Sequence record: OQ938542.1
DNA length: 64,000 nt
Reading direction: 5' to 3' (one strand)
Origin: Escherichia phage vB_EcoP_PE007
In this document: piece by piece, positions 35,561 through 35,634 of the stretch
How the letters are laid out: every line of letters starts with the position of its first letter
How positions within the stretch are numbered: position 1 is the first letter of the stretch
Made by a program: the position numbers and the translations under genes
The notes under the pieces: model-generated
What the model was told of the DNA's origin: nothing
Database searches by the model: none
The model's input: only the letters and a program-made list of their open reading frames with translations

Positions 35561-35634
35561 GCCCACTTAGCTTAGACGGGGAAAGCAACCGACTAATAAT
35601 CGGAAGGTCACTGGTTCAAATCCAGTAGTGGGTA
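35561..35634 (+). tRNA. tRNA (hand-folded cloverleaf; apparent anticodon AAU, isotype uncertain)
   Basis: acceptor gcccact/agtgggt; D-arm gctt-agacgggga-aagc; anticodon arm accga-ctaataa-tcgga; variable aggtc; T-arm actgg-ttcaaat-ccagt; discriminator A. Confidence 0.6.

Follow-up and report, generated by a model that had tools for sequence, protein, structure and literature searches.

A coliphage tRNA-Ile gene with an AAU anticodon and its likely derivation from a tRNA-Ile2-type tRNA

Adenosine at the wobble position (A34) is rare in bacterial systems (PMC8007984, PMC11066159), as the original prediction for the gene studied here had noted, and a review describes phage tRNA sets as lacking the same ANN anticodons as those of bacteria (PMC8007984). 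The gene, for tRNA-Ile(AAU), lies in a 64-kb stretch of DNA from Escherichia phage vB_EcoP_PE007 (OQ938542.1; this whole stretch is called the window below), an N4-like E. coli podophage of the genus Gamaleyavirus (Schitoviridae). The cytosolic tRNA-Ile(AAU) of eukaryotes has the same genomic anticodon and the same amino acid (PMC8007984). Its A34 is deaminated to inosine by ADAT2/ADAT3 and three codons are read, whereas E. coli has only the homodimeric, UACG-specific TadA, and the body of the phage tRNA is bacterial or phage Ile2-like, not eukaryotic.

All TadA-dependent sites in E. coli lie within UACG (PMC13170351), and one substitution at loop position 32, 37, or 38 is enough to abolish editing by TadA (PMC5137457). 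When 15 of the 16 A34 anticodons were tested in a loop otherwise identical to that of tRNA-Arg2, inosine was found only in ACG, AUG, and, in part, AAG (PMC11066159). In the same study, an orthogonal tRNA with anticodon AAU in the loop C-U-A-A-U-A-A had no detectable inosine in E. coli and decoded AUU at 4.5%, AUC at 0.43%, and AUG at 0.27%, with AUA below detection. The phage tRNA has this same 7-nucleotide (nt) loop, CUAAUAA, in the same host, and we regard the engineered tRNA, with its unmodified A34, as its nearest functional analogue, although that tRNA is artificial, having an archaeal tRNA-Tyr body that receives tyrosine from an orthogonal synthetase. An undeaminated wobble A is likewise found in the tRNA-Thr(AGU) of Mollicutes and in the tRNA-Pro(AGG) of a Salmonella proL mutant (both cited in PMC11066159). 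These serve four-codon boxes, in which misreading is harmless; AAU, in contrast, belongs to the split Ile/Met box, and discrimination against AUG therefore matters. The remaining point of comparison is E. coli tRNA-Ile2 (ileX/ileY), which carries lysidine-AU made from CAU and reads AUA; in its unmodified form, the CAU tRNA has methionine identity (PMC9976931).

The phage element is a genuine tRNA gene and the sole tRNA called in the window by ARAGORN or Rfam. From 5′ to 3′, its segments are GCCCACT, TA, GCTT, AGACGGGGA, AAGC, A, ACCGA, CTAATAA, TCGGA, AGGTC, ACTGG, TTCAAAT, CCAGT, AGTGGGT, and A. They form a 7-bp acceptor stem (a G1·U72 wobble and six Watson-Crick pairs), a 4-bp D stem whose loop contains GG (G18 G19), an anticodon stem with an A27·A43 mismatch and four Watson-Crick pairs, a 7-nt anticodon loop with U33 and a purine at position 37, and a T arm with a loop of the TTCRANT type, followed by the discriminator A73. 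The canonical arms described in the original prediction were thus all found, in the register it gave. Its AAU anticodon was borne out as well: ARAGORN calls tRNA-Ile(aat) at 35561-35635, and the Rfam tRNA model RF00005 matches over all of its positions (1 to 71 of 71) with 64.8 bits (gathering score, 29; E = 8e-12 for the entire window) and places the loop in the same register. A plain minimum-free-energy fold deviates in the D/anticodon region and points to no other anticodon; such folds of unmodified tRNA sequences usually deviate from the cloverleaf.

Homologous copies found in GenBank phages, IMG/VR, and metagenomes comprise 15 distinct Gamaleyavirus sequences. Across the tRNA, 62 of 74 columns are invariant, and the mean pairwise identity over 19 loci is 95%, compared to 50% for the upstream and 64% for the downstream 120-nt flank of these loci. 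The loop CTAATAA is unchanged in all 15 variants. Stem cells of the alignment are paired in 94.9% of cases, versus 16 to 46% when the register is slid, and double-sided changes are seen at two pairs: U-A, C-G, and U-G all occur at pair 2-71, and pair 30-40 goes from G-C to A-U in phage ZQ2. Covariation statistics for tRNA-Ile are weak, with only these 2 double-sided pairs and 13 of 500 shuffles reaching the score, because the sequences are too similar (mean identity 96%). We therefore take the contrast in identity with the flanks as the stronger argument, and it indicates that the gene is under purifying selection. Over the 5 kb around the gene, identity to phages ECBP1, PD38, and Bp4 is about 96%. 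The gene is lacking in St11Ph5 (around 3208-3212 of locus L022), where alignment breakpoints fall exactly at the gene borders (window 35550 and 35637), and it therefore behaves as a dispensable cassette. Bas96 (3321-3405 of locus L021) and pSb-1 (1821-1905 of locus L013) have an 85-nt variant at this site. The acceptor stem and T arm of the variant closely match those of tRNA-Ile, but in place of the anticodon stem-loop the variant has a 3-bp stem bearing a 24-nt segment; it scores about 54 bits with Rfam, receives no ARAGORN call, and is annotated as tRNA-Val in Bas96.

The body of the phage tRNA is closer to the Ile2 type than to Ile1 or Met tRNAs, with 74% identity to E. coli ileX (CAU), 58% to ileV (GAU), and 65% to metT. 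It shares A73, C4-G69, U12-A23, and C29-G41 with E. coli tRNA-Ile2, and the anticodon loops differ only at position 34 (CTCATAA versus CTAATAA). Unlike tRNA-Ile2, however, it has A34 and not the C34 on which TilS acts; it cannot receive lysidine, does not need TilS, and is predicted to read AUU, not AUA. Further differences are G27·U43 in tRNA-Ile2 versus A27·A43 here, the D loops, and the lack of an encoded CCA in the phage gene. On these comparisons, the AAU tRNA is best described as a derivative of the tRNA-Ile2 lineage and not as a member of it. Its nearest relatives by sequence are phage CAT tRNAs, at 76 to 78% identity, including that of EcP1, also a member of the Schitoviridae. The Ile2-type CAT tRNAs of EcP1, Aeromonas phage AS-yj, and Yersinia phage phiR1-RT have an identical or nearly identical anticodon arm, and that of phiR1-RT also has an identical T arm; unlike tRNA-Ile(AAU), all three retain C34. 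Recent capture of a host tRNA was considered and rejected, as none of 5,426 complete E. coli genomes has a match above the 80 to 90% identity band; near-full-length matches in them are 76 to 78% identical. In the genomes of the bacterial species collection, the anticodon arm never occurred inside a tRNA, and five matches in genome contigs were not tRNAs. Among the metagenome 17-mer matches, 32 of 41 fall outside any predicted tRNA.

The same arm context in IMG/VR was found with AAT in 16 contigs and with CAT in at least 120, an excess of CAT of at least 7-fold. Represented among those with AAT are a large family of Salmonella/Escherichia siphophages (Skate and Seszw), Proteus/Providencia-like phages (L080/L083), and two clusters of five tRNAs (L033 and L086). 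Matches in two metagenome-assembled genomes of giant viruses (L079 and L085) are AAT tRNAs of the eukaryotic kind. The Skate/Seszw tRNA-Ile(AAT) has the same anticodon loop and stem as the Gamaleyavirus tRNA and stands in the same one-nucleotide relation to a CAT tRNA, that of STGO-35-1 (annotated "tRNA-Met"), from which it differs at position 34 only; its body is different, its CCA is encoded, and its phage family is unrelated, so that AAT has an independent origin there. The change from C34 to A on an Ile2-type body has thus occurred at least twice. The Salmonella phage tRNA family comprises 99 phage records, 77 of them at least 99% identical to the AAT form, and Akira, a more distant outgroup in it, has CAT. 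From this distribution, CAT is likely ancestral and AAT derived.

Would such a tRNA be charged with isoleucine? The bacterial identity set for isoleucyl-tRNA synthetase (IleRS) has been compiled, with position 34 (G or lysidine) itself a determinant (PMC9976931). C4-G69, U12-A23, and C29-G41 are present and invariant in the 15 variants, A73 is found in the window and in 14 of the 15, and A35, U36, A37, and A38 all lie in the invariant loop. Isoleucylation of the AAU tRNA therefore seems likely from its sequence. The loss of C34 should, in turn, abolish the methionine identity of the unmodified CAU form.

Codon usage, to which the original prediction had pointed as a check, shows a demand for AUU. 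In 67 open reading frames (ORFs) of the window, Ile codons are 62% AUU, 27% AUC, and 11% AUA; AUU is the fourth most used codon (35 per 1000) and accounts for 65% of Ile codons in late (virion) genes. Among the annotated genes of a 50-kb E. coli K-12 region, the 31 highly expressed ones use 70% AUC, 29% AUU, and 0.6% AUA, and the 34 others use 52% AUU, 39% AUC, and 9.5% AUA. The codon preferred by the phage is thus one that the host reads via G·U wobble and avoids in its best-expressed genes, and a Watson-Crick reader of AUU would fit this demand.

Putting these observations together, we favor, with somewhat more confidence than doubt, a functional elongator tRNA-Ile with an unmodified A34 that reads AUU and arose from a tRNA-Ile2-type ancestor by a C34-to-A change. 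The gene, its fold and conservation, the type of its body, the recurrent C34/A34 switch, and the codon usage were computed here; that this loop lacks inosine in E. coli, and how it decodes there, comes from published work; expression, processing, charging, and the benefit to the phage we infer. We imagine that the tRNA is transcribed as part of an island of RNA genes, which has the replication/recombination genes on one side and the gene for the virion RNA polymerase on the other, that it would mature through host RNase P and 3′ trimming, and that the host CCA-adding enzyme would complete its 3′ end, since the gene encodes no CCA. Host IleRS would then attach isoleucine. A37 would most likely become N6-threonylcarbamoyladenosine, as in other tRNAs for ANN codons, and A34 would remain unmodified, since an A-A-U anticodon is no substrate for E. 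coli TadA. By analogy with the engineered tRNA, decoding is most likely that of a Watson-Crick reader of AUU only, with AUC read roughly ten times more weakly and AUA not read; the tRNA would supplement host tRNA-Ile1(GAU), which reads AUU only by G·U wobble. The single C34-to-A change in a lysidine-dependent, CAU-bearing phage tRNA would also have ended dependence on TilS and the MetRS identity of the unmodified precursor.

Several observations weigh against such an explanation. The G34 or lysidine-34 determinant of IleRS is replaced by A, and the D-loop elements G16/U20/U21, minor ones linked to editing, are missing, the D loop containing no U; the A27·A43 mismatch is conserved. The inosine and decoding data in PMC11066159 come from an M. 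jannaschii tRNA body. No promoter was identified, sigma-70-like sites numbering 8 in the region, compared to 7.1 expected from shuffles. Comparison among relatives marks the gene as accessory, since St11Ph5 does without it and the form in Bas96 and pSb-1 is aberrant. Finally, the enrichment of AUA over the host is, in relative terms, at least as large as that of AUU. Simple codon compensation would therefore predict that CAU, which would serve AUA, be kept rather than exchanged for AAU, and so counter-defense and independence from TilS stay live motives for the switch.

Of the three natures that the original prediction had suggested for the tRNA, a decoding oddity is the best supported, while inosine modification is unlikely and a decoy is without positive support. 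Its own caveat, that the fold might be off by a register, is the source of the idea that the true anticodon is different or that the region is not a tRNA at all. We found no point in favor of such an artifact, and two independent programs, joined by the tRNAscan-SE calls reported for relatives, rule it out; this idea can be set aside with near certainty. Inosine at position 34, made by host TadA on this particular body or by an unrecognized phage enzyme and allowing AUU, AUC, and AUA to be read, has more to recommend it. The flanking nucleotides that TadA requires, C32, U33, A37, and A38, are all in the loop (PMC5137457), a reader of AUA would be useful to a phage that uses this codon more than its host does, and the function of many phage ORFs is not known. 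Yet positions 35 and 36 are A-U, outside the UACG context, and the same loop stayed free of inosine on a scaffold competent for editing, with no detectable decoding of AUA (PMC13170351, PMC11066159). A phage-encoded deaminase like TadA was looked for and rejected: six-frame ORFs of at least 50 amino acids across the window contain no zinc motif of the cytidine deaminase (CDA)/TadA type. The annotation of ECBP1 positions 1 to 36600 has no TadA-like enzyme either, its sole deaminase being a dCTP deaminase, which to our knowledge is unrelated to the tRNA deaminases. We consider inosine very improbable and an unmodified A34 the best-supported state. As for a decoy, nearly all IleRS identity elements are kept outside position 34 and the D loop, and the whole cloverleaf is conserved, which speaks against that idea.

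Two further explanations accept the tRNA and question its purpose. One is counter-defense, in which the altered loop or body escapes a tRNA-targeting nuclease or modifier of the host or of a competitor, so that translation continues when host tRNA-Ile is attacked, or titrates the effector. Evasion of anticodon nucleases, retron effectors, and PARIS has been proposed or demonstrated for phage tRNAs with a changed anticodon loop (PMC10264068). The accessory, cassette-like presence of tRNA-Ile would suit such a role, as would its place within an island of tRNA-like RNAs and about 0.6 kb upstream of an ORF with a Tad2-like anti-Thoeris domain. The proximity to Tad2 is circumstantial, however, no tRNA-Ile-specific E. 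coli nuclease was found in the literature examined, and one would expect a stand-in for tRNA-Ile1 to have retained GAU in order to read AUC as well, whereas AAU covers AUU only. We think this explanation unlikely, if worth keeping in mind. The other holds that the gene is a nonfunctional or near-neutral remnant, an Ile2-type tRNA inactivated by its wobble mutation in a decaying tRNA cluster. Its neighbors in relatives are indeed degenerate tRNA-like elements ("Ala-cgc," "Cys-aca," flagged as pseudo, and "Undet"), and the missing and aberrant copies noted above are of the kind expected from decay. Against it stand the high identity of the tRNA within much less similar flanks, the stem substitutions that keep pairing, the invariant anticodon loop, and the fixation of AAT in the independent Salmonella/Escherichia phage family and in further lineages. 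Decay of this sort strikes us as improbable, and we continue to prefer an AUU-reading tRNA-Ile with an unmodified A34.

In the databases the gene is already annotated; the analysis of its nature appears to be new. GenBank labels in relatives include "tRNA-lle(aat)" in Bp4, "(aa:Ile,seq:AAT)" in F22, and "predicted by tRNAscan-SE" in Moonfish. Some relatives bear the label "tRNA-Xle" with the note "tRNA-lle(aat)," apparently from the typo "lle," and Ile2-type CAT tRNAs are labeled tRNA-Met; records with inconsistencies include Bp4, PhAPEC7, PW8, EcP1, and STGO-35-1. The tRNA-Ile gene is unannotated in PD38, ZQ2, phi G17, IME11, and PW8; the paper on PW8 reports zero tRNAs, and ARAGORN detects the gene in that genome. 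Because these tRNAs are variously named Ile, Xle, or Met, or are missed, surveys of the tRNA content of phages are distorted. "tRNA-Ile-AAT" has been given for related phages without remark (PMC11927229), and in the open-access literature we found no discussion of A34 in these phage tRNAs. They are exceptions to the statement on missing ANN anticodons in the review cited at the outset (PMC8007984).

The tRNA gene is located in an ORF-poor gap of about 1.8 kb (about 34100-35940) that holds several further RNA elements (Table 1). Two blocks of the gap are near-invariant across nine distinct versions, and its middle is highly variable. The gap as a whole behaves like a mosaic, with cassette-like RNA modules that some relatives have gained and others have lost. 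An element annotated as "tRNA-Ala(cgc)" in ECBP1 is cleanly missing from the window (junction 34494-34501), and the window also lacks, at 35111-35118, a module of some 120 bp whose end is ...CTGGTAACCA. ECBP1 and Bp4 have a pseudo-tRNA, "tRNA-Cys(aca)," with another A34 anticodon, where the window has a different sequence (34698-34983). Several relatives have a "tRNA-Undet" (40.7 bits with Rfam) immediately upstream of tRNA-Ile.

Table 1. Positions of the tRNA gene and of other features in and next to the RNA island (window coordinates)
Feature	Position	Strand	Description	Basis
tRNA-Ile(AAU) gene	35561..35634	+	74 nt to discriminator A73; CCA not encoded	ARAGORN, Rfam RF00005, conservation, compensatory changes
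Anticodon loop C32-U33-A34-A35-U36-A37-A38	35593..35599	+	Anticodon AAT at 35595-35597	Read from the sequence
Conserved block 1, ending in tmRNA-like tag template	34596..34695 (tag 34663-34695)	+		Sub-threshold Rfam matches, conservation of frame and block
Anticodon-less tRNA-like domain	35049..35115	+	67 nt	T-arm motif search, covariation
Intrinsic-terminator-like hairpin	35861..35890 (consensus scan 35861-35882)	+	9 bp, GC-rich, then TTTTATTT; 227 nt downstream of the tRNA	
N4 gp49/Sf6 gene 66 family protein (PF13876)	35939-36331		Immediately downstream of the island	Pfam
Protein with Thoeris anti-defense 2-like domain (PF11195)	36252-36965		Domain at residues 157-236 of the listed ORF	Pfam

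The first conserved block ends in what resembles the tag template of a transfer-messenger RNA (tmRNA). The frame, preceded by an invariant CCAATAACATAAAT, reads GCA AAC GAT GAT GTT GTT CTG ATG GCG GCG TAA (ANDDVVLMAA*). It has the GCA resume codon, the shortness, and the hydrophobic-Ala-Ala-stop type of end of tmRNA tags. Relatives encode ANDDVILMAA, ANDNVVLMAA, ANEEAYLMVA, ANDDVVLMVA, and ANDQTFLAVA, always 10 codons and a stop, with synonymous differences present. The 17-nt context before the tag also precedes classical tmRNA tags in other contigs. Over 851 nt, the Rfam models tmRNA_permuted (RF04321) and beta_tmRNA (RF01850) match below their gathering scores, at 31 bits versus 47 (E = 2e-4) and 18.6 bits versus 84 (E = 1e-3), respectively. 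ARAGORN -m calls no tmRNA in the window or in four relatives, and the similarity of the element to E. coli ssrA is not above chance.

The second block ends in the tRNA-like domain. Its acceptor stem is 7 bp long, a 5-bp hairpin with a UGCA loop takes the place of the anticodon arm, and a T arm, A73, and an encoded CCA are present. Among seven distinct versions, 100% of cells are paired, with 4 double-sided pair changes, and 0 of 500 shuffles reach the covariation score; ARAGORN makes no call here, and no Rfam model matches at its gathering score. The domain departs from that of a tmRNA: position 3-70 is C-G and not G·U, so that alanine identity is lacking, and the two strands of the acceptor stem are local, located downstream of the tag rather than enclosing it. 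A canonical tmRNA at 34596-35115 was accordingly rejected. RNAalifold suggests long-range pairing of the two conserved blocks; a nested helix could not be made out by eye. No report of a tmRNA in Schitoviridae was found in the open-access literature, and the tag template and tRNA-like domain may together be of greater novelty than the tRNA. A conserved hairpin, GCCAGGTGGAATCCCTGGC, precedes the tRNA-like domain. Directly after the domain, at 35111-35193, is a long near-perfect hairpin (TTCAAAGTAGCATTGC ... GCAGTGCTACTTTGAA), which surfaced as a chance-level match to a microRNA family.

Downstream of the tRNA, the strong terminator-like hairpin is the putative end of a rightward RNA transcription unit; the record of PhAPEC7 has a terminator annotated at the equivalent place. 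A consensus scan of 33000-37000 gave 9 terminator-like sites, compared to 3.2 expected from shuffles. A strong intrinsic-terminator-like hairpin is also present at 36412-36432 on both strands. Pfam was searched for the seven ORFs flanking the tRNA locus, and the ORF with the PF11195 domain is just downstream, so that the RNA island adjoins an anti-defense gene.

One can envision a broader picture, in which the AAU tRNA is made, is charged with isoleucine, and works in E. coli translation while its A34 stays truly unmodified, as a natural A34 elongator in a split box, and in which the recurrent C34-to-A change is adaptive, giving freedom from TilS or from a defense directed at tRNA-Ile and retargeting the tRNA to AUU. 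The tmRNA-like tag and the tRNA-like domain might then belong with it to a joint translation-RNA island. We offer this picture tentatively, and think it possible rather than probable.

tRNA-Ile(AAU) is conserved in a genus of coliphages and has arisen independently in other enterobacterial phage families. If active, it would be a natural, genetically tractable case of an unmodified A34 decoding a split box, in the best-studied translation system, and it would reveal how A34 is handled by IleRS and what leads phages, time and again, to swap a reader of AUA for a reader of AUU.

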